DNA from: Candidatus Kapaibacterium sp.
GTDB taxonomy: Bacteria > Bacteroidota > Ignavibacteria > Kapaibacteriales > UBA2268
Assembly (NCBI GenBank): GCA_938031175.1
Contig: CALHGZ010000004.1
Coordinates: 1,527 to 65,526 of the forward strand
Length of the DNA stretch: 64,000 nt
Direction of reading: 5' to 3'
Below, in pieces: positions 20,862 through 32,372 of the stretch. The notes under the pieces were generated by a model. That model saw nothing but the letters and a program-made list of their open reading frames with translations. It ran no database searches and had not been told where the DNA came from. The number at the start of each line of letters is the position of its first letter. Within the stretch, counting starts at the first letter, position 1. The position numbers and the translations under genes were made by a program.

Positions 20862-22037
20862 ATGCGTATTGAAGAAACAAATGTAAGAAAAAGGAATACA
20901 GAGAAAAATCCATCTTGTATATATTGCAAAAGCACACGTGTAATTAAACACGGTAAGACAATCACAGGTAACAGGCGTTTTAGGTGTCTTAATTGTGGTA
21001 AGACTTGGGTACTTGAGAAGAATGAACCTGTTAGACCTGACTTGGCAGACATAACTGAAGCATATTTAAATGGAAGAACATATAGAGATTTAGTGTCAAT
21101 TTATCACAGCTCGCCTCTGAGAATAAATCAAAAAATAAGGGAATTTTTAGAAGGGTGCCCGCACTGGGAAGATTATCTCGATGCAACTGTACGTCACCAC
21201 GAACCTCGGTTGATTAATCTGGTCGGAAGAACATTTTCATGTTCTACTTCAGGTTCGAGTAATAATACTATGTTTTTGGCAATGGCAGTTGATGGTTTAT
21301 CTACAGTTGTTTTGGGGTATGAAATTGCAAAGTCTGAGAATAAAAATGTATGGTTATATCTTCTTGATAGATTGAATTGTCGGGGTTTAATTTGTCCATC
21401 TTTTATGTCTAATGGTTCCCGTAATATTGAAGAAGCTGTGAAAACGATTTATCCTTATGCAAATGTCAGAATCAATTATCACAGGGCATATCGTGACAAA
21501 GAGATAACTTGTTGCATTTATCGCTTACCTATTAATAATAAACTTTTAAACGATGCTGTTAAAATTTACAACTCACTCGAAAATAAAAATTTAAATAAAT
21601 ATTTAAAAGAACATAGTAATAAGAATTTCAATGAGATATTGTTTTTATCTCAAGAAGAGTTTATTAAAAGAGTCAAGGAACGTTTAGAGAATAAACAAAA
21701 AACTAGGGTAGAAGGGTTAAGCAGCACGTTCCAAGCCCGATTTGAGAAGTTCCACATGCTTAAAGATGATCCAGAACCAATAATTAACGGTTGGATTGCC
21801 AAAACAATGCTGCAAAGATTGAACACGGGTTTTAGTAGATTATCATTATATATGCAAGTGCCAGCTATTACTACATTTAAAAACTTTTCTTGTGGTAATA
21901 TACCAAAAGCACTTGATTTGAATTTAGATAGTCCCTTGCTAAAATCTTTTATAATCGAAATTGCTTCACGTGGTCTGCAATTACCTATAATATTTAACAA
22001 ATGTGAAATGAAGTTAGATAAATGTAGTTTATTCTAA
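20862..22037 (+). CDS. Transposase-derived protein (IS1 InsA-like Zn ribbon + HTH + IS256/MULE-like RNase H fold), probably catalytically inactive
   Basis: CIYC..VIKHG..RFRCLNC Zn ribbon and an HTH. W..LLDRL..RGL....MSNG...EEAV..IYP aligns with IS256 W..FL..L..RGL....ISDG..AI..FP. No terminal inverted repeats seen. Confidence 0.7.
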   Translation: MRIEETNVRKRNTEKNPSCIYCKSTRVIKHGKTITGNRRFRCLNCGKTWVLEKNEPVRPDLADITEAYLNGRTYRDLVSIYHSSPLRINQKIREFLEGCPHWEDYLDATVRHHEPRLINLVGRTFSCSTSGSSNNTMFLAMAVDGLSTVVLGYEIAKSENKNVWLYLLDRLNCRGLICPSFMSNGSRNIEEAVKTIYPYANVRINYHRAYRDKEITCCIYRLPINNKLLNDAVKIYNSLENKNLNKYLKEHSNKNFNEILFLSQEEFIKRVKERLENKQKTRVEGLSSTFQARFEKFHMLKDDPEPIINGWIAKTMLQRLNTGFSRLSLYMQVPAITTFKNFSCGNIPKALDLNLDSPLLKSFIIEIASRGLQLPIIFNKCEMKLDKCSLF

Positions 22038-24320: not shown

Positions 24321-25892
24321 TTAATGTTTATGAATATCCCGGTGCATAATTCTTCTCGATTGGAATAGTCTTTCTTCTTCAGGTAAAGACATTAACTGAT
24401 TATTCAAGTGCTTGTCATTCTCTCTTTGAAGTAAATCTGCAACATAATTAATAAGTAGATGAGGGAAAATTCCATTTCTTTCATAAAGATTTCTTACCTG
24501 TAGGAGCTTTTCAGCGGACTCTGAACAACTTGTGGCTAATTGTTCTAGATGTTCCATTGAGGCAGTTGCATAAATGTTAGTGCCTACTTTACTTGCCTTG
24601 GCAATGTTTATGGAATCTTTTTTATTAGTTAGCCCCCATTCGACTGCCATGCATATACCGGCTAAGAGCAAATGGGCATTTGCACTTCCATCCGGTGTTC
24701 TTAATTCAATTGTTTGGCGTGGTTCGTCGTGAACCATCTTTTCTTTTTGTTGAGGATTAATTTTCATAGCCAAGTTATTAAACTTTGTCCAGGCAAGTGG
24801 AACTCGTATCATGGCGCTTCGGTTTGAGTCGCTCCAGCATACTTTGGTTGGTGCTTCTTGATTTGGAACCAACCTCATATATGAGGCGGCAACCATATTA
24901 CCGAATGCAGTTAGGCTCGGAGCATATCTACATAAGCCACCAATCAACATTAATGCTTCATCAGATAGGTCACCATTTTTGTCAGTCATAATATTTTTAC
25001 CGTCTCTTTTCAGGAGCATATGAATATGTAAGCCATTTCCAGCGTGACCAATATCAATTTTAGGATAAAATGTTGCAATAAAATTATTCCGATAAGCTGT
25101 ATTTCTGATTATCCAGCTTGCTAAAACCATGCTATCAGCAGCATCTTCAATTGGGGCAGGTGTAAATTCTACCTCCATTTGTTCAGCTATTTTTCCATTT
25201 AATTCCGGATACATACTTTCTAAATGTTCAATATGTCCTACTTCGGCGTGAGCATATTTAACATTACCGAATATTTGGGCAATATTTTTGACCACTTCAT
25301 TCATAATTTTTGCGGTTTTAATGAATGGTTCGGCTGCGTGATATCCTTGTTGTTTTGGTAATGGATAATGTCTGCTTTCGGGTTCTCCGATTAGGTAAAA
25401 TTCAAGTTCACCTAATGCGTGAAGTTCGCAGTTTGTATTATTTTTTAAAAGTTTTGAAGCTCTTAGTAAAATGTTATCAGGTGTAAATTCAGCTAATTCA
25501 CCCTCACGGTTAAAGAATCGACAAATAAAGTCAATGCTTCCGCTATCGAAAGGATTAAAAAAAGCAGTCTTATAAACCGGTACTATATAAAGGTCGGATT
25601 TGCCAACGTCAACTATTCCTTTGAACAAAGAAGAGCCGTCAACACGTTCTCCTTCGGCTAAAATGGTTTCTACTTGTTTTCTGTCAATTATTGGAAGACG
25701 TAGCTCTTTAATCTTTCCATCGAGTGCTGTATAATGGAAAGTAATTCTTTCTAGATTTTTTTCTTTGATGACTTTTATAAAATCTTCTCGTGTAAATTCA
25801 TGTCTATCTTTACCAGTTAACAATGAAATTGGATTTGATAATGTGAATTGTTCCCGTTCAAATTTGACTAACTTACCCATTTGGTATCCCAT
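24321..25892 (-). CDS. Glutamine synthetase family protein (type I-like)
   Basis: DGSSLF, ELEFY, HAEVG..QMEVE, GNGLHIH, RLVPNQEAP, NRSAMIRVP, IELRTPD. Confidence 0.9.
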   Translation of the reverse strand: MGYQMGKLVKFEREQFTLSNPISLLTGKDRHEFTREDFIKVIKEKNLERITFHYTALDGKIKELRLPIIDRKQVETILAEGERVDGSSLFKGIVDVGKSDLYIVPVYKTAFFNPFDSGSIDFICRFFNREGELAEFTPDNILLRASKLLKNNTNCELHALGELEFYLIGEPESRHYPLPKQQGYHAAEPFIKTAKIMNEVVKNIAQIFGNVKYAHAEVGHIEHLESMYPELNGKIAEQMEVEFTPAPIEDAADSMVLASWIIRNTAYRNNFIATFYPKIDIGHAGNGLHIHMLLKRDGKNIMTDKNGDLSDEALMLIGGLCRYAPSLTAFGNMVAASYMRLVPNQEAPTKVCWSDSNRSAMIRVPLAWTKFNNLAMKINPQQKEKMVHDEPRQTIELRTPDGSANAHLLLAGICMAVEWGLTNKKDSINIAKASKVGTNIYATASMEHLEQLATSCSESAEKLLQVRNLYERNGIFPHLLINYVADLLQRENDKHLNNQLMSLPEEERLFQSRRIMHRDIHKH

Positions 25893-26262: not shown

Positions 26263-27177
26263 ATGAAAAAAGACTTTCTCAAAGTGCTTGATTTTACACG
26301 TGAAGAGATATTAGCCATATTCAAATTAGCTCAGGATATGAAAGCAAATAAGAAAAAATATGCAAAATCTTTAGAGGGTAAAACATTAGCTTTGATATTT
26401 GAGAAGCCATCTTTACGAACCCGAACCACATTTGATGTTGGAATACAACAATTAGGCGGTTTTTCAATATATTTATCACCAGCAGAGATTAACCTGGGCA
26501 AAAGAGAGTCTGTATATGATGTTGCTAAAAATTTGGAGCGTATGGTTGATGGCATAATGATTAGAACATTTGGTCATCATATAGTGGAAGATATGGCTAA
26601 ATATGCAAAAATTCCTATAATAAATGGATTAACTGATTATTCGCATCCTTGCCAGGCAATGGCTGATTTTTTAACTATTTTAGAAATCAAAGAGGATTTT
26701 AAGGGGCTTAAGTTATGTTACGTTGGTGATGGCAATAATGTAGCTCATTCTCTTATGGGTGCAGGTGCCCGATTAGGTGTTGATGTAACAATTGCTTGTC
26801 CACGAGGCTATGAACCAAACGTGATTGCATATTTGAATGTGAAAGAGGCGGCTAAAGAATCGGGCGCAAAAATCGAAATAGTTCACGACCCGGTTGAAGG
26901 CGTCAAAGGTGCAGATATAGTTTATACAGATGTCTGGGCATCTATGGGTCAAGAAGCTGAGGCAGAAAAGAGGAAACAAATATTTATGCCGTATCAGGTT
27001 AATGATAAACTAATGTCTTACGCCAATCCAGATGCAATATTTATGCATTGCTTGCCTGCGCATCGTGGCGAGGAAGTAACGGATAGTGTGATTGATGCTG
27101 AATATTCGGTTGTTTTCCAAGAAGCAGAAAATAGATTACACGTTCAGAAAGCAATTATGTATGAATTAATGAAATAA
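26263..27177 (+). CDS. argF: Ornithine carbamoyltransferase (probably catabolic ArcB role)
   Basis: SLRT, HPCQ, GDGNN, DVWASMG, HCLP, QEAENR. Confidence 0.95.
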   Translation: MKKDFLKVLDFTREEILAIFKLAQDMKANKKKYAKSLEGKTLALIFEKPSLRTRTTFDVGIQQLGGFSIYLSPAEINLGKRESVYDVAKNLERMVDGIMIRTFGHHIVEDMAKYAKIPIINGLTDYSHPCQAMADFLTILEIKEDFKGLKLCYVGDGNNVAHSLMGAGARLGVDVTIACPRGYEPNVIAYLNVKEAAKESGAKIEIVHDPVEGVKGADIVYTDVWASMGQEAEAEKRKQIFMPYQVNDKLMSYANPDAIFMHCLPAHRGEEVTDSVIDAEYSVVFQEAENRLHVQKAIMYELMK

Positions 27178-27182
27178 AAGAT

Positions 27183-28121
27183 ATGGAAAAAGTTGCTGTA
27201 TTAGCAGTTGGAGGCAATTCATTAATCCGTGCTGGTGAACGCGGAACAATCGAAGAACAGCTTTTCAATGCATATGCAACTGGGCGATCTGTTGCACAAT
27301 TAATTGCCGATGGATGGCATCTTGTAATAACCCACGGTAACGGTCCTCAAGCAGGAGCAGCTCTACTGCGTTCGGAAAGAGCTTCGAATGAAGTGTATCC
27401 TCATCCTCTAGATGTATGCGTTGCAACAACACAAGGAGAAATTGGTTATATACTGGAAAGAGCGATTAATTATCATCTTCGTCAACTTAATCTTAGAAAT
27501 AATGTAGTAACAATACCTACAATGGTGTTAGTGAATTCAAATGATCCTGCTTTCCAAAATCCAACTAAACCAATTGGACCATTCTATTCTAAAACTGAAG
27601 CTGAAGTTAGAAAAAAATTGGGCTGGAATATAATTGAAGATTCTGCACGTGGTTACAGAAGGGTTGTACCATCACCCGAACCTATAGATATATTGGAAAT
27701 TGAAGCAATTAAACAAATTGTAAATATTGGATTAACTTGTATAGCTGTTGGTGGTGGTGGAATCCCTGTAATTTATGAAAATGGAGATATTAAAGGTGTT
27801 GAAGCTGTTATTGATAAGGATAGATCATCAGCATTATTAGCTTCAAAACTTAAAGCAGAGACTTTTATAATTTCTACAGACACAGACAAGGTTTATTTGA
27901 ATTTTAAGAAAACCAATCAGCAAGGAATAGATAGAATAACAGTTTCCGAATTGCAGAAGTATTATGATGAAGGTCATTTCCCTGCTGGCAGTATGGGACC
28001 GAAGGTGGAAGCTGTAATAAAATTTTTGAAAAATGGTGGAAAAAGAGCTATAATTACCTCATATGAGTATTTAGTTGAGGCTTTAGATGGTTATGCTGGA
28101 ACACTGGTTCTACCTGATTAA
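27183..28121 (+). CDS. arcC: Carbamate kinase
   Basis: AVGGNS, THGNGPQ, PTKPIGPFY, RRVVPSP, EAVIDKD, GSMGPK. Confidence 0.97.
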   Translation: MEKVAVLAVGGNSLIRAGERGTIEEQLFNAYATGRSVAQLIADGWHLVITHGNGPQAGAALLRSERASNEVYPHPLDVCVATTQGEIGYILERAINYHLRQLNLRNNVVTIPTMVLVNSNDPAFQNPTKPIGPFYSKTEAEVRKKLGWNIIEDSARGYRRVVPSPEPIDILEIEAIKQIVNIGLTCIAVGGGGIPVIYENGDIKGVEAVIDKDRSSALLASKLKAETFIISTDTDKVYLNFKKTNQQGIDRITVSELQKYYDEGHFPAGSMGPKVEAVIKFLKNGGKRAIITSYEYLVEALDGYAGTLVLPD

Positions 28122-28170: not shown

Positions 28171-29094
28171 ATGATGAAATTAAAGCACATTATTGAATCA
28201 CAGCAGTTCACCGTTCCTTCATTATATGATTTATTTGAAAGAGCAGATCAAATGAAAAAAATTGTGAAGAGAGGCGGTACGCGTGATTATCAGAATAAAG
28301 TAATGGCGACCTTGTTTTATAAGCCATCAACCCGTACAAGGTTTTCTTTTGAATCGGCAATGTATCGTCTTGGTGGTAGTGTATTATCGACAGAACAGGC
28401 AAAAGAATTTTCATCGGAAATCGAGGGCGAAAATCTGGAGGATACTATACGTATTATATCAAACTATTCAGATGTGATAGTTTTGCGTCATTATGAAGAA
28501 GGGGGTGCCAAACGTGCAGCAGCGGTATCGCCGGTACCTATAATTAATGCTGGTGATGGTTCTGGTGGACAACATCCAACACAGGCTTTGCTTGATTTAT
28601 ACACTATTTATAGTGAATGTAAAACACTCGATGGTCTATCTGTAGCATTTGTTGGTGCATTAGACCAGGGAAGAACAGTACGGTCACTTGCTTATTTATT
28701 AGGCAAGTTCGATAGAATCAAATTATATTTTATTGCACCACTAGAAATGACCATCAAAAATGATATTTTGGAATATTTAGATGAAAGAGGAGTTTCATAC
28801 CAATTAGCTGATAGCACTGATGGAATAATAAATCGAGTTGATGTTGTCTATCAAACTAGAATAGATAAAAAGCGGCTCATTAATAAAGACGTAAAATTAT
28901 CACAATATAATATAGATAAAAATGTATTAAGCAAGATGAAATATAATTCAATCATAATGCATCCATTACCACGCTCAGTGGAAATAGATCCGGCTGTTGA
29001 TACGGATCCTCGAGCTGCATATTTTAGGCAAGCAGAAAATGGACTTTATGTTCGGATGGCTTTATTGACAATGCTTTTTGAAAATGAAGAATAA
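28171..29094 (+). CDS. Aspartate carbamoyltransferase-like enzyme (PyrB family) with substituted substrate-binding residues
   Basis: STRT, RH, NAGDG, HPTQ and HPLP are present, but it has SSEIEGE for SSxxKGE, GAL for GDL, and TRIDKKR for TRIQxER. Confidence 0.85.
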   Translation: MMKLKHIIESQQFTVPSLYDLFERADQMKKIVKRGGTRDYQNKVMATLFYKPSTRTRFSFESAMYRLGGSVLSTEQAKEFSSEIEGENLEDTIRIISNYSDVIVLRHYEEGGAKRAAAVSPVPIINAGDGSGGQHPTQALLDLYTIYSECKTLDGLSVAFVGALDQGRTVRSLAYLLGKFDRIKLYFIAPLEMTIKNDILEYLDERGVSYQLADSTDGIINRVDVVYQTRIDKKRLINKDVKLSQYNIDKNVLSKMKYNSIIMHPLPRSVEIDPAVDTDPRAAYFRQAENGLYVRMALLTMLFENEE

Positions 29095-29109: not shown

Positions 29110-30306
29110 ATGACAACTCAAGATTATATCCAATTAGAAGAAAAATACGGTGCGCACAATTATCATCCCTTAGATGTAGTTATCAAAGAAGCGAAAGGTG
29201 TTTGGGTAACAGATGTAGATGGCAAGCGTTATCTAGATTGTCTTGCTGCATACTCAGCTGTTAATCAGGGACATTGCCATCCTAAAATTTTGGAAGCATT
29301 CATTGAACAAGCTAAAAAGGTTACCTTGACAAGTAGAGCATTCAGGAATGATAAACTACCGATATTCTATAAGAAATTGGCAGATATGACCGGATACGAA
29401 ATGTCCTTACCGATGAATTCAGGAGCTGAAGCGGTTGAAACTGCTATTAAAGTTTCAAGGCGTTGGGGCTATGATATCAAAAAAATTCCCGAGAACAAAG
29501 CCGAAATTATTGTAGCAGACGGTAATTTCCACGGAAGAACTACAACAATAGTTGGATTTTCGACAGATCCAATGTCATATCGAGGTTTTGGTCCCTATGC
29601 TCCCGGCTTCGTAATTGCGAAATATGGCGATGCTGATGATTTTCGCTCAAAAATAAATGAGAATACATCTGCCATTCTAATAGAACCGATACAGGGGGAA
29701 GGGGGAATTGTTATCCCCCCTGAGGGGTTTCTCCGAGAAGTAGAACAAATGTGCCGGGAAAATAATGTGCTTTTTGTATGCGATGAAATTCAGTCAGGTT
29801 TGGGTCGTAGTGGGCGTTTATTTGCTTTTGAGTACGAAGGAGTCCATCCGGATATTGTGATTATTGGCAAGGCATTATCAGGAGGATTTTATCCTGTATC
29901 AGCAATTCTTTCGAGTAGAGATATATTAATGGTAATTAAACCGGGTGAGCATGGCTCTACATTTGGAGGTAATCCATTGGCTGCTGCTGTTGCTGTTAAA
30001 GCTTTGGAAGTAATAGAGGAAGAAAATCTGATTCAACGTTCATTTGAATTGGGGGAATATTTTATGTCGAAACTGAGAGCAATTAATAATCCTCACATAA
30101 AATTAGTACGAGGCAGAGGATTATGGATTGGACTTGTACTTGATACTAAAGCTAGACCATATTGCGAAATGCTCAAAGAAGAAGGAATTCTATGCAAGGA
30201 GACGCATGAGACTATAATTAGATTTGCACCGCCACTTGTTATTACGAAGGAAGAAATTGATTGGGCGATTGAAAAAATTGAAAAAGTATTTAATGCACTA
30301 AATTAA
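29110..30306 (+). CDS. rocD: Ornithine--oxo-acid aminotransferase
   Basis: GAHNYHPL, AYSAVNQGHCHP, DEIQSGLGR, GKALSGG, HGSTFGGNP. Confidence 0.96.
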   Translation: MTTQDYIQLEEKYGAHNYHPLDVVIKEAKGVWVTDVDGKRYLDCLAAYSAVNQGHCHPKILEAFIEQAKKVTLTSRAFRNDKLPIFYKKLADMTGYEMSLPMNSGAEAVETAIKVSRRWGYDIKKIPENKAEIIVADGNFHGRTTTIVGFSTDPMSYRGFGPYAPGFVIAKYGDADDFRSKINENTSAILIEPIQGEGGIVIPPEGFLREVEQMCRENNVLFVCDEIQSGLGRSGRLFAFEYEGVHPDIVIIGKALSGGFYPVSAILSSRDILMVIKPGEHGSTFGGNPLAAAVAVKALEVIEEENLIQRSFELGEYFMSKLRAINNPHIKLVRGRGLWIGLVLDTKARPYCEMLKEEGILCKETHETIIRFAPPLVITKEEIDWAIEKIEKVFNALN

Positions 30307-30315
30307 AATGATGTT

Positions 30316-30972
30316 ATGGAAGAAAATTACATTAATGAATTTAATTTAGAGAACAAAACAAACGAATGGCTTAAGCAAGTAAGACAATTTAATATTCATA
30401 ATATGATTTTGAATAAGGATAAGTCAGCTTTACTTGTAATTGATATGCAGAAGTACTTTTTAAATCCTGCTTCAAGCGAATACACACCTGCAGGTTTAGT
30501 AATACTCAATAACATAAAAAGGCTCATAGATTTTTATCGTCGAGCTGAGCTACCAATAATATATACCCGTCACGCACATCATCACAATGGCACAGATGCT
30601 GGAATAATGAAGTGGTGGTGGCAGGGTATGTGCATAGAGGGAACGCCCGAATCCGAAGTTGCGGATGAAATTGCACCATTACCTACGGAAAGACAAATAA
30701 TTAAGCGGCGCTATTCTGCTTTTTATAATACAGATCTAGAGACAGTTCTAAGATGCCTCAAAGTTGAGGATTTAGTTATTTGTGGAATTATGACAAATAT
30801 GTGTTGCGAATCTACAGCAAGAGATGCTTACTTTAGGGATTTCAGAGTATTTTTTCTGGCTGATGCAACTGCAACTATTACTGAACAAATGCATATTGCA
30901 AGCCTTTTAAATCTTGCATTCGGATTTGCCTATGTAACGACGACAAATTCGCTCATTGAGTTGTTAAAATAA
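30316..30972 (+). CDS. Isochorismatase-family cysteine hydrolase (amidase/N-carbamoylase-like)
   Basis: Triad motifs VIDMQ, IKRRYSAF, TNMCCESTARDA. Confidence 0.92.
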   Translation: MEENYINEFNLENKTNEWLKQVRQFNIHNMILNKDKSALLVIDMQKYFLNPASSEYTPAGLVILNNIKRLIDFYRRAELPIIYTRHAHHHNGTDAGIMKWWWQGMCIEGTPESEVADEIAPLPTERQIIKRRYSAFYNTDLETVLRCLKVEDLVICGIMTNMCCESTARDAYFRDFRVFFLADATATITEQMHIASLLNLAFGFAYVTTTNSLIELLK

Positions 30973-30995
30973 TTTTGTTAATATTAGGAGGTAAA

Positions 30996-32318
30996 ATGTC
31001 AAACAAAAAGAAACGTGTAATAATATTAGGAGCAGCTGGTAGGGATTTTCATAATTTTAATATATACTATCGTGATTGCGAGACAACAGAAGTTGTTGCA
31101 TTTACTGCTGCCCAGATACCTGATATTGAAGGTAGATTATACCCACCGAATTTAGCAGGGAAAAACTATCCTAAAGGTATACCCATTTTTGCTGAGCAAG
31201 ATTTAGAGAAATTGATAAAAGAGTATGAAGTAGATGAGTGTGTACTTTCGTATAGCGATTTATCTTATGAGACAGTAATGCATTTAGGTTCAAGGGTATT
31301 AGCCTCAGGTGCAAAGTTTTCTATGTTGGGTTCTTATCAGACCATGTATGAATCCAGTAAACCGGTTATTTCGATAACAGCAGTTAGAACTGGATGTGGT
31401 AAAAGCCAGACAACAAGAGCGGTGGTCAAATTACTGAGGGATGCTGGTAAAAAAGTTGTTGCTGTACGTCATCCAATGCCATACGGGGACCTTGAATCGC
31501 AAAGGGTGCAAAGATTTGCTACAATTGAGGATTTGCATAAATTCAAGTGTACAATCGAAGAGATGGAAGAATATGAGCCTCATATAGCAATGGGCAGTAT
31601 AATTTATGCTGGGATTGATTATGAAGCTATATTGAAAGAAGCCGAAAAGGAAGCTGATGTCATCGTTTGGGATGGTGGAAATAATGATATGCCTTTTTAT
31701 AAGCCAGATTTATCAATTGTTGTTGTTGATCCCCTAAGACCAGGACACGAAATTAGCTATTACCCGGGGGAGGTAAATTTTAGAATGGCTGATATTATTG
31801 TAATTAACAAAATAGACTCTGCTTATCCAGAAGATATCGATTTTGTGCTTGAAAATATTCGCAATTATAATCCGAATGCTAATGTAATATTAGCAGCATC
31901 AGCTATTAAAGTGGATGATTCTGATTTGATTAAAAACAAGAGGGTTTTGGTTATCGAGGATGGTCCGACTCTTACACACGGCGAAATGGATATCGGTGCT
32001 GGAGTTGTCGCAGCTAAAAGATTCGGTGCAAAGGAAATCATTGACCCTAGACCATATATCGTCGGTACGATTAAACAAACCTTCCAAATATATCCTGATA
32101 TCGGAAATTTACTCCCTGCAATGGGTTATGGCGAACGTCAGATGAAGGATTTAGAAATTACAATAAATAATACTGATTGCGATACTGTAGTTATTGGAAC
32201 ACCAATTAATCTTGCTAGATTTATTAAAATCAATAAACCATATGTACGCGTATATTATGAGTTAGCTGAAATCGGGCATCCTAATCTTCAATCTTTAATT
32301 AAAGATTTTCTCAAATAA
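30996..32318 (+). CDS. Arginine synthetase (ArcE)-like protein; cyclic-2,3-diphosphoglycerate synthetase/COG2403 P-loop family
   Basis: GAAGRDFHNFN, AFTAAQIP, RTGCGKSQT, RHPMPYG, TIEEMEEYEPH, EDGPTLTHG, LPAMGY. SD GGAGG precedes ATG 30996. It shares an operon with OTCase and carbamate kinase. Confidence 0.8.
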   Translation: MSNKKKRVIILGAAGRDFHNFNIYYRDCETTEVVAFTAAQIPDIEGRLYPPNLAGKNYPKGIPIFAEQDLEKLIKEYEVDECVLSYSDLSYETVMHLGSRVLASGAKFSMLGSYQTMYESSKPVISITAVRTGCGKSQTTRAVVKLLRDAGKKVVAVRHPMPYGDLESQRVQRFATIEDLHKFKCTIEEMEEYEPHIAMGSIIYAGIDYEAILKEAEKEADVIVWDGGNNDMPFYKPDLSIVVVDPLRPGHEISYYPGEVNFRMADIIVINKIDSAYPEDIDFVLENIRNYNPNANVILAASAIKVDDSDLIKNKRVLVIEDGPTLTHGEMDIGAGVVAAKRFGAKEIIDPRPYIVGTIKQTFQIYPDIGNLLPAMGYGERQMKDLEITINNTDCDTVVIGTPINLARFIKINKPYVRVYYELAEIGHPNLQSLIKDFLK

Positions 32319-32339
32319 AGCAATAATAAAATTTGTAAG

Positions 32340-32372
32340 AAGCTGTCAGATGCTTATCTGACAGCTTTTTTT
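32340..32372 (+). terminator. Intrinsic terminator ending the arginine operon
   Basis: AAGCTGTCAGAT-GCTT-ATCTGACAGCTT followed by TTTTT. Confidence 0.9.

Follow-up and report, generated by a model that had tools for sequence, protein, structure and literature searches.

Within a 64,000-nucleotide stretch of the genome of Candidatus Kapaibacterium sp. (assembly GCA_938031175.1, contig CALHGZ010000004.1, positions 1,527 to 65,526 of the forward strand), hereafter called the window and numbered from its first letter, lies an operon of arginine-catabolic genes that includes a paralogue of aspartate carbamoyltransferase (ATCase), here called ATCl. This gene belongs to a clade that keeps the residues for binding carbamoyl phosphate (CP) and has lost contacts by which ATCase recognizes aspartate. 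It was compared across 80 related loci, all from single-species genomes, with identities measured against the proteins of the window. The operon consists of the following features:

26263-27177, plus strand: ornithine carbamoyltransferase (OTC; argF/arcB), operon gene 1; NF001986, 441 bits (cut-off 306); found in 67/80 loci

27183-28121, plus strand: carbamate kinase (CK; arcC), directly 5′ of ATCl; TIGR00746, 374 bits (cut-off 358)

28171-29094, plus strand: ATCl, the ATCase-derived paralogue; TIGR00670, 303 bits (cut-off 237); Pfam OTCace_N and OTCace

29110-30306, plus strand: ornithine-oxo-acid aminotransferase (OAT; rocD); TIGR01885, 561 bits (cut-off 378)

30316-30972, plus strand: isochorismatase-family hydrolase; Pfam PF00857, 170 bits, with weak matches to RutB and to the biuret hydrolase BiuH

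30975-32318, plus strand: probable ArcE, a COG2403-type 'predicted GTPase' of 447 amino acids (aa), or 440 aa if its start is the later one, maybe at 30996; found in 55/80 loci

32337-32370, plus strand: terminator-like hairpin of 15 pairs with a T run, closing the operon

The ATCl open reading frame (ORF), intact from its ATG to its TAA, codes for 307 aa, and AAGAGG lies 4 nt 5′ of its start. Both transcarbamylase domains are present, and the motifs KPSTRT, SSEIEGE, RH, HPTQ, GALDQGRT, TRIDKKR and HPLP can be read along the protein. ATCl is named ATCase in databases because it scores above the curated cut-off of the NCBIfam ATCase equivalog TIGR00670 (302.6 bits versus 236.95); the 120 close homologues listed by a word-indexed search, at 75–100% identity, are mostly unnamed or titled 'aspartate carbamoyltransferase'. 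The closest solved relative is PYRB of Arabidopsis (6ypo, E 1.4e-97; chains of E. coli PyrB reach about 1e-65), and the stretches EFSS, RTVRSLAYLL and DPRAAYFRQ are common to both in the alignment, as a first-pass annotation had recognized when it described the backbone as plant-like. An AlphaFold2 model of ATCl, with a mean predicted local distance difference test (pLDDT) of 87.4, a predicted template-modelling (TM) score of 0.88, and residues 77–84 of the 80s loop below 50, matches 6ypo in Foldseek with a TM score of 0.91 at 52% identity. The predicted fold is thus of the ATCase type.

Alignment with E. coli K-12 PyrB from NC_000913, whose numbering is used below for equivalent positions, and reading of the codons bear out all the substitutions that had been listed at first: Lys84 corresponds to Glu85 of ATCl (GAG, 28423-28425), Gln231 to Asp232 (GAT, 28864-28866), Glu233 to Lys234 (AAG, 28870-28872), Asp162 to Ala163 (GCA, 28657-28659) and Glu50 to Lys51 (AAG, 28321-28323). 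The claim that these positions are near-invariant in ATCases also holds: in a set of 124 representative relatives of ATCase, drawn from a 50%-identity library of 1.8 billion proteins, Lys84 is found in 118, Gln231 in 116, Asp162 in 121, Glu233 in 114 and Glu50 in 107. The same library contains one close ATCl representative, at 440 bits, followed by the next match at 346 bits.

The genome, which is 97% complete, encodes a second ATCase-family protein over the cut-off, and this one is canonical: a pyrB on another contig (G000:C1:141729-142607, 286.8 bits) with the motifs SSLAKGE, GDILHSR, RLQNER and HPGP, which are of the B. subtilis type. The search for such a gene, which the first-pass annotation had proposed as a check, thus shows that ATCl is a paralogue and not the housekeeping, pyrimidine-pathway ATCase of this organism. 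The same holds in family f9, where ATCl and pyrB are both complete and over the TIGR00670 cut-off in 17 of 19 genomes, the other two having fragmented copies, and a role of ATCl as sole ATCase is ruled out by the canonical pyrB in this genome and in those of f9. In a maximum-likelihood tree, 24 operon-linked sequences, together with the library representatives P0121 and P0138, form a single clade of 26 rows (support of 100 in the Shimodaira-Hasegawa-like approximate likelihood ratio test, SH-aLRT) that is nested among ATCases bearing Lys84 and Gln231. According to record titles, ATCl occurs in Ignavibacteriota, Kapabacteria/Bacteroidota, Chlorobiota, Kryptoniota, Acidobacteriota and Myxococcota. 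Its frame is intact in the window and in 80/80 loci, with 59–82% identity across several phyla, and its mean identity to the window protein over these loci (74.2%) is on a par with that of OTC (73.9%) and OAT (73.2%) and higher than that of ArcE (69.6%) and CK (63.0%). This pattern argues for a single origin and strong constraint, and the gene appears not to be decaying. Another representative, P0139, is also without Lys84 and Gln231 (Ala and Ser in their places), and the tree places it apart from the ATCl clade.

Residues were counted in 191 non-identical members of the ATCl clade and in 103 canonical ATCases; the latter were picked for having Lys84 and Gln231, and their 103/103 at each of these positions is to be read alongside the 118 and 116 of the unfiltered 124. 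What is retained in the clade is extensive. Ser52, Thr53, Arg54, Thr55, Ser80, Glu86, Arg105, His106, His134, Gln137, Arg167, Thr168, Arg229 and the His-Pro-x-Pro of HPLP are each kept in at least 189/191 members, including 191/191 for the Pro of HPLP, for Thr168 and for each of the two carboxylate binders, Arg167 and Arg229, and Leu267 is kept in 184/191. Thus, the CP motifs of ATCase (SxRT, HPxQ and HxLP, with Arg105) are present in ATCl, and two other ATCase features, RxQxER and Lys84, are both missing. The segments in which the clade departs from canonical ATCases are as follows:

28270-28290, plus strand: RGGTRDY, residues 34–40, with the clade motif RGGTxDY (R 186, G 189, G 190, T 190, D 190 and Y 190 of 191)

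28321-28323, plus strand: Lys51 at the Glu50 position (clade K 112, R 22, Q 16, A 14, N 9, S 7 and E 6 of 191; canonical E 90/103)

28411-28431, plus strand: 80s loop SSEIEGE with Glu85 at the Lys84 position (both Ser and the last Glu 191/191; Glu83 172/191)

28564-28566, plus strand: Gly132, a one-residue insertion before QHPTQ in GDGSGGQHPTQ (G 188/191; a gap in 98/103 canonical ATCases)

28654-28680, plus strand: GALDQGRTV with Ala163 (=Asp162), Asp165 (=Lys164) and Arg168 (=Arg167), counted against canonical ATCases below

28855-28875, plus strand: TRIDKKR with Arg230 (=Arg229; R 191/191), Asp232 (=Gln231) and Lys234 (=Glu233)

The first-pass annotation had made it a refuting outcome that orthologues should carry Lys84 and Gln231, the changes then being private to this genome. 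They are not private: Gln231 survives in 1 and Lys84 in 42 of the 191 members. The idea of a conserved, charge-altered acceptor site fares less well, in that the Lys84 position appears unconstrained across the clade (E 70, K 42, Q 30, P 12, S 8, T 6, A 6, D 5 and G 4, with others making up the rest). The Gln231 position has lost its Gln almost entirely (D 133, E 25, N 12, P 6, V 5, I 3, R 3, Q 1, S 1), and its replacement varies by subclade. Moreover, the Asp that was taken as an added charge is paired with Ala at the Asp162 position in 133/191 members, where canonical ATCases combine Asp162 with Gln231. In ATCase, Asp162 contacts Gln231, Glu50 contacts Arg167 and Arg234, and Lys164 contacts Glu239. 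From the alignment, the acid near Asp162/Gln231 looks relocated rather than added. Taken singly, the Asp162 position is Ala in 165/191 members versus Asp in 102/103 canonical ATCases, and the Lys164 position is Asp in 178/191 versus K 45, L 20 and A 11 of the 103. By comparison, Lys at the Glu233 position, which had been listed among the changes, is nearly private, with K in 4/191 members against E in 119 and D in 25, and the window protein is an outlier here. The first Glu of SSEIEGE is no special mark either, since Glu83 (172/191) is shared with motif-canonical, sole-copy ATCases encoded in the corresponding operons of sister families. A charge swap between positions 50 and 84, from Glu/Lys to Lys/Glu, was considered and rejected, as no clear pairing is seen (K-E 36, K-K 25, K-Q 25, R-E 13 and others). 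Arg167 is invariant though Glu50 is gone (E in 6/191).

The clade has also gained conserved positions of its own. The Tyr of RGGTxDY is Leu in 87/103 canonical ATCases, and further positions of surface type, namely Lys179, Arg182 and Lys184, are conserved in addition to this motif and Asp165. The 30s loop of ATCase lies at the trimer interface. The 240s loop is 14 residues long in 175/191 ATCl members versus a mode of 17 in canonical ATCases. A subclade from Acidobacteriota and Myxococcota (L071, L074, L076 and P0121) shows the reverse of the Ala and Asp of the main clade, with Glu/Asp at 162 and Arg at 231 (VGELDRGRT ... TRIRPER).

The operon context is as distinctive as the sequence. Of the 72 loci that have at least 1.1 kb upstream, 69 have CK immediately before ATCl, which substantiates the tie to carbamate kinase suggested by the first-pass annotation, and OAT adjoins ATCl in 48 of the 70 loci that have at least 1.4 kb downstream. 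All five genes (OTC, CK, ATCl, OAT and ArcE) occur together in 39/80 loci, and in one locus (L081) CK and ATCl stand alone. The exceptions to CK adjacency are solitary ATCl genes without CK, OTC or ArcE nearby (L011:8001-8918, L018:5412-6329 and L021:2835-3752), and these copies have Lys at 84, Pro at 231 and Ser at 162. As had been noted, neither pyrC nor pyrI adjoins ATCl, whose flanking genes are OTC, CK, OAT and the isochorismatase-family and ArcE-like genes; the search for pyrI covered the locus only, not the whole genome. Clustering of 797 ORFs yielded no other conserved neighbours, as the next-largest clusters cover at most 11/80 loci, and the top two of these look like antisense ORFs of GC-rich loci. 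The isochorismatase-family gene between OAT and ArcE is found in 0/80 related loci and is thus an insertion specific to this genome; as a clue to the substrate (of the N-carbamoylsarcosine, biuret or ureidoacrylate type) it was dropped for that reason. One further gene lies divergently beside the operon:

24321-25892, minus strand: glutamine-synthetase-like gene of 523 aa, divergent from the operon (Pfam Gln-synt_C/N), upstream of OTC in 4/80 loci

Its product may re-assimilate released ammonia, and an association with the operon is possible. In Kryptonia-type loci such as L079, the order is ArcE-OTC-CK-ATCl, followed by a 764-aa ORF in place of OAT (L079:8977-11271), which, judging by its N terminus, presumably resembles metE. 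Elsewhere in the window, a 391-aa ORF (20862-22037, plus strand) starts with a CxxC...CxxC zinc-finger-like stretch and is possibly a transposase. No RNA sequencing runs matching the 6.2-kb stretch are listed.

For the 447-aa product of the last gene of the operon, neither Pfam nor NCBIfam gives a profile match; the protein matches weakly to a cyclic 2,3-diphosphoglycerate (cDPG) synthetase (9sxb, E 4.8e-8), and its homologues are titled 'predicted GTPase' or cDPG synthase, the names that homologues of TK2200 (ArcE) carry according to PMC11032458. ArcE converts arginine, ADP and Pi to citrulline, NH3 and ATP (Michimori et al., PMC11032458), and it was discovered as the companion gene of arcB and arcC where arcA is missing (PMC11032458). 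This pattern is found here, with arcB (OTC) and arcC (CK) present and arcA, for arginine deiminase (ADI), not found in the 97% complete genome. Thus, the 447-aa protein is probably ArcE, an assignment made from annotation-level likeness and the arcB/arcC context. In a class sample of 151 genomes, whose lists were compared by eye, 39 carry ATCl and 37 of these 39 have an ArcE homologue, and such a homologue is also found in 54 ATCl-free genomes. Therefore, ATCl is an accessory of the ArcE module, and not the reverse.

The genome has pyrB, pyrC (contig C10), pyrE and a proC-like gene, and a profile search of the 97% complete assembly found no carB, argG, argH, arcA, argC or proA over cut-off. 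In Thermococcus kodakarensis, pyrimidine synthesis is fed with CP and proline synthesis with ornithine by ArcE and OTC, and ATP comes from CK (PMC11032458, PMC13260591). The gene set of OTC, CK, an ArcE-like protein and OAT resembles the ArcE-ArcB-ArcC and ornithine aminotransferase (OrnAT) set of that archaeon, and the likeness extends to the genome, which has no ADI, carbamoyl phosphate synthetase (CPSase), ArgG/ArgH or proA over cut-off. The organism thus resembles T. kodakarensis in bacterial form: it would be auxotrophic for arginine and draw CP, ornithine and proline from it via ArcE, OTC and OAT. The differences are that here the genes form a bacterial operon in which all are clustered, that it includes an extra ATCase-type gene that the available text of the T. 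kodakarensis studies does not mention (PMC11032458, PMC13260591), and that carB is present in 36/39 ATCl-positive genomes. For this last reason, the operon was rejected as a general replacement for CPSase: carB matches with E up to 1e-100 are missing, by eye, only from this genome (G000) and from G042 and G070. An arginine-forming direction is also unlikely in this genome, where proA, argC, argG and argH are not found over cut-off. In family f9, an argG-like gene scoring 223–246 bits, below the cut-off, is present in 11/19 genomes, and the operon thus occurs with and without an argG-like gene.

ATCl is not the only ATCase-family gene to lie among arc genes. The sister families f8 and f19 of the class encode an ATCase of 356–360 aa, extended at the N terminus by about 45 aa, with 34–36% identity to E. 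coli PyrB and 39–43% to ATCl. In all eight fetched loci (L085-L092, from genomes G028, G004, G102, G110, G038, G134, G075 and G118), this gene lies within an ArcE-CK-OTC cluster or directly beside ArcE or CK, and coordinates suggest a like arrangement in four more f8 genomes. Therefore, an ATCase-type consumer of CP is recurrently clustered with these arc genes. The f8/f19 enzyme keeps Lys84, Asp162, Lys164, Arg229, Gln231 and Glu233, with only Arg234 changed, to Tyr, and it is the sole ATCase-family match over cut-off in 5/5 tested genomes, all five of which have pyrC. It forms a clade of its own (SH-aLRT 100) that is not sister to ATCl in a quick tree with a weak backbone. In the two lineages compared, the clustered ATCase is canonical where it is the sole copy and has lost aspartate-specific contacts where a separate pyrB exists. 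This recurrence ties ATCase-type enzymes to arginine-derived CP.

Set against known enzymes, ATCl resembles ATCase (E. coli PyrB and Arabidopsis 6ypo) in fold, in the STRT, RH, HPTQ and HPLP motifs and in Ser80, Glu86, Arg167 and Arg229. It differs in that Lys84 is not fixed, Gln231 and with it RxQxER are lost, Asp162 and Lys164 have become Ala and Asp, an insertion precedes HPTQ, the RGGTxDY loop is present, and the gene is a second copy placed in an arginine-catabolic operon and not among pyr genes. Two other identities were rejected. ATCl is not an ornithine carbamoyltransferase, as it is without HCLP and DxxxSMG, scores 146 bits against a TIGR00658 cut-off of 281, and stands in the same operon as a true OTC (26263-27177). 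Nor is it a ureidoglycine transcarbamylase (UGTCase), as it has HPLP, with its Pro in every clade member, and not H(T/S)LP, and its Lys position is variable. UGTCase of Rubrobacter, the one known non-ATCase on the ATCase branch, is described as having H(T/S)LP, K106 as the equivalent of Lys84, and S258 and K261 in the 240s loop (PMC4581275). It is nevertheless similar in being an ATCase-like sequence labelled ATCase or 'pseudo ATCase' that has a different acceptor and a catabolic CP context (PMC4581275); this context is purine degradation, as opposed to the arginine context of ATCl. The catabolic OTCases and putrescine transcarbamylases of the ADI and agmatine deiminase pathways are similar in that a transcarbamylase lies beside arcC in an energy-yielding operon, but they carry HCLP and DxxxSMG (or variants) as members of the OTCase branch, whereas ATCl is of the ATCase branch and the operon already has an OTC.

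Given the paralogy, clade, synteny and residue pattern, we tentatively favour, with less than even confidence, the reading that ATCl is an active transcarbamylase that uses the CP of the operon and has an altered acceptor. In the scheme we propose, ArcE would turn arginine into citrulline with a gain of ATP, OTC would phosphorolyse citrulline to ornithine and CP, and CP would then pass to ATP via CK or to biosynthesis. ATCl would tap this CP pool, probably while docked on CK, with an acceptor site changed by the loss of two aspartate-recognition contacts, Lys84 (which comes from the neighbouring chain) and Gln231. Continued catalysis with CP is argued from the invariance of the CP-binding and catalytic set, and of Arg167 despite the loss of Glu50; the standard aspartate reaction is argued against because Lys84 and Gln231 are lost; and because both arginines are invariant, the acceptor is expected to be an α-amino acid with an anionic group. 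As for direction, the consumption of CP is only slightly favoured over its formation. We infer the catalysis, the non-aspartate acceptor and the contact with CK from these patterns, and the fullest version of the proposal, in which ATCl is a new non-aspartate-acceptor transcarbamylase that forms a CP-channelling complex with CK in a bacterial arginine-synthetase pathway, is possible and yet more tentative than altered acceptor use as such.

For the contact with CK, the predicted complex of CK and ATCl scores 0.55 (runs 0.51–0.61) versus 0.00 for the best control, with predicted contacts that agree at 92% or more and a pLDDT of at least 86 for the partners. The score mark that it passes is reached by 58/80 solved complexes and 2/110 mismatched pairs, and scores at or below 0.60 within this comprise only 7 of the 80 and both mismatches, so that the interface is weakly supported. 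Channelling of CP from CK to both OTCase and ATCase is known from Pyrococcus furiosus (PMC6022934). The adjacency of CK and ATCl and their weak predicted interface parallel this coupling of CK to transcarbamylases for labile CP (PMC6022934), but the P. furiosus partner is a canonical ATCase in a hyperthermophilic and anabolic system, and ATCl has a degenerate aspartate site.

Several observations speak against an active enzyme with a new acceptor. Depending on the subclade, position 231 holds D, E, N, P, V, I or R and position 84 almost any residue, which resembles relaxed constraint more than a freshly tuned pocket. The 80 loci contain no conserved accessory gene hinting at a special acceptor or at the fate of a product. 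These two points weigh most heavily against the reading. ATCl lies above the ATCase equivalog cut-off and keeps Arg167 and Arg229, so that aspartate is possible as the acceptor. A pass for CK binding in this score range would more often be wrong than right unless binding was likely beforehand. Finally, the ArcE label is probable on annotation-level likeness and context.

The alternative that survives best, though we consider it rather unlikely, is that ATCl is still an aspartate carbamoyltransferase, an operon-dedicated isozyme with an unusual site that makes carbamoyl-aspartate from arginine-derived or CK-made CP. Its TIGR00670 score and the retention of Arg167, Arg229, Thr55, Arg105, His134 and Leu267 are what such an isozyme would have, and sister families cluster their sole, motif-canonical ATCase with the same arc genes. 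However, Lys84 is variable and Gln231 almost absent in ATCl, in contrast to their near-universal presence in the unfiltered representatives, and a canonical pyrB coexists. Substitutions of Lys84 nearly abolish the activity of E. coli ATCase. The window protein, moreover, reads R-I-D-K-K-R where RxQxER is given for all known ATCases in PMC4581275. In favour of the isozyme, the genome has no CPSase over cut-off, so that its pyrimidine route must draw on arginine-derived CP (PMC13260591).

Two further alternatives are both doubtful. In the first, which was the second of two ideas in the first-pass annotation, ATCl runs in reverse and phosphorolyses a ureido compound other than citrulline, and the CP so formed yields ATP through the adjacent CK. 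The position of CK directly 5′ of ATCl, and the locus in which these two genes stand alone, are what this scheme would predict, and pairs of a transcarbamylase and CK mark the catabolism of ureido compounds (PMC4581275), although catabolic ATCase or β-alanine transcarbamylases are still hypothetical according to the same source. Against it, no conserved gene in the 80 loci is fit to import or produce a second ureido substrate, and the isochorismatase-family gene that might have been a hint is absent from all of them. The context also leans the other way, with a biosynthetic ATCase clustered with the same arc genes in sister families, and the reaction is thermodynamically uphill, as for citrulline (PMC6022934).

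In the second, ATCl is a non-catalytic CP-binding subunit that serves a CK/OTC complex as sensor, buffer or scaffold, left over from an ancestral CK-OTC-ATCase channelling assembly after a separate pyrB took over the catalysis. It would account for the relaxation of constraint exactly at the acceptor contacts and for the gain of the surface-type positions (RGGTxDY, Asp165, Lys179, Arg182 and Lys184), and it fits the weak pass of the predicted CK-ATCl interface, complexes of CK with transcarbamylases being known in P. furiosus (PMC6022934). Nevertheless, a catalytic set comprising His134, Gln137, Arg105, Thr55 and both acceptor arginines, kept in at least 189/191 members, goes beyond what CP sensing would need.

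That ATCl is a redundant copy drifting to loss, or reflects sequencing errors, is very unlikely: two near-universal ATCase residues are indeed lost beside a canonical pyrB, but the frame is intact in every locus and as conserved across phyla as OTC and OAT, the same changes recur in orthologues, and four DNA runs, possibly of the source samples, hold 99–100% of the sampled words of the stretch.

ATCl is an uncharacterized branch among the transcarbamylases, which goes under the name of ATCase and is linked to a pathway whose first description dates from 2024; a literature search found no account of an ATCase-like gene clustered with ArcE, arcC or rocD, and the supplementary neighbourhood figures of the ArcE papers may show such neighbours. 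The ATCase label on this family is likely a systematic mis-annotation over several phyla, as ATCl is without two of the features that define ATCases and accompanies a real pyrB wherever this was checked. If the CP-channelling proposal is true, arginine-derived CP gains a third fate (or source) beside ATP and pyrimidines. Naming the acceptor would add a new entry to the short list of transcarbamylases; otherwise, a CP-binding pseudoenzyme would be defined. Together, the two lineages amount to a natural experiment on what becomes of an ATCase that no longer has to serve as the housekeeping enzyme, and the clusters of the sister families are gene-cluster evidence for bacteria that couple arginine-derived CP to pyrimidine synthesis. 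On the same kind of evidence, the ATCase-type genes of two lineages in ArcE/OTC/CK clusters suggest that CP from arginine is passed on to transcarbamylation in bacteria as it is in Thermococcus.

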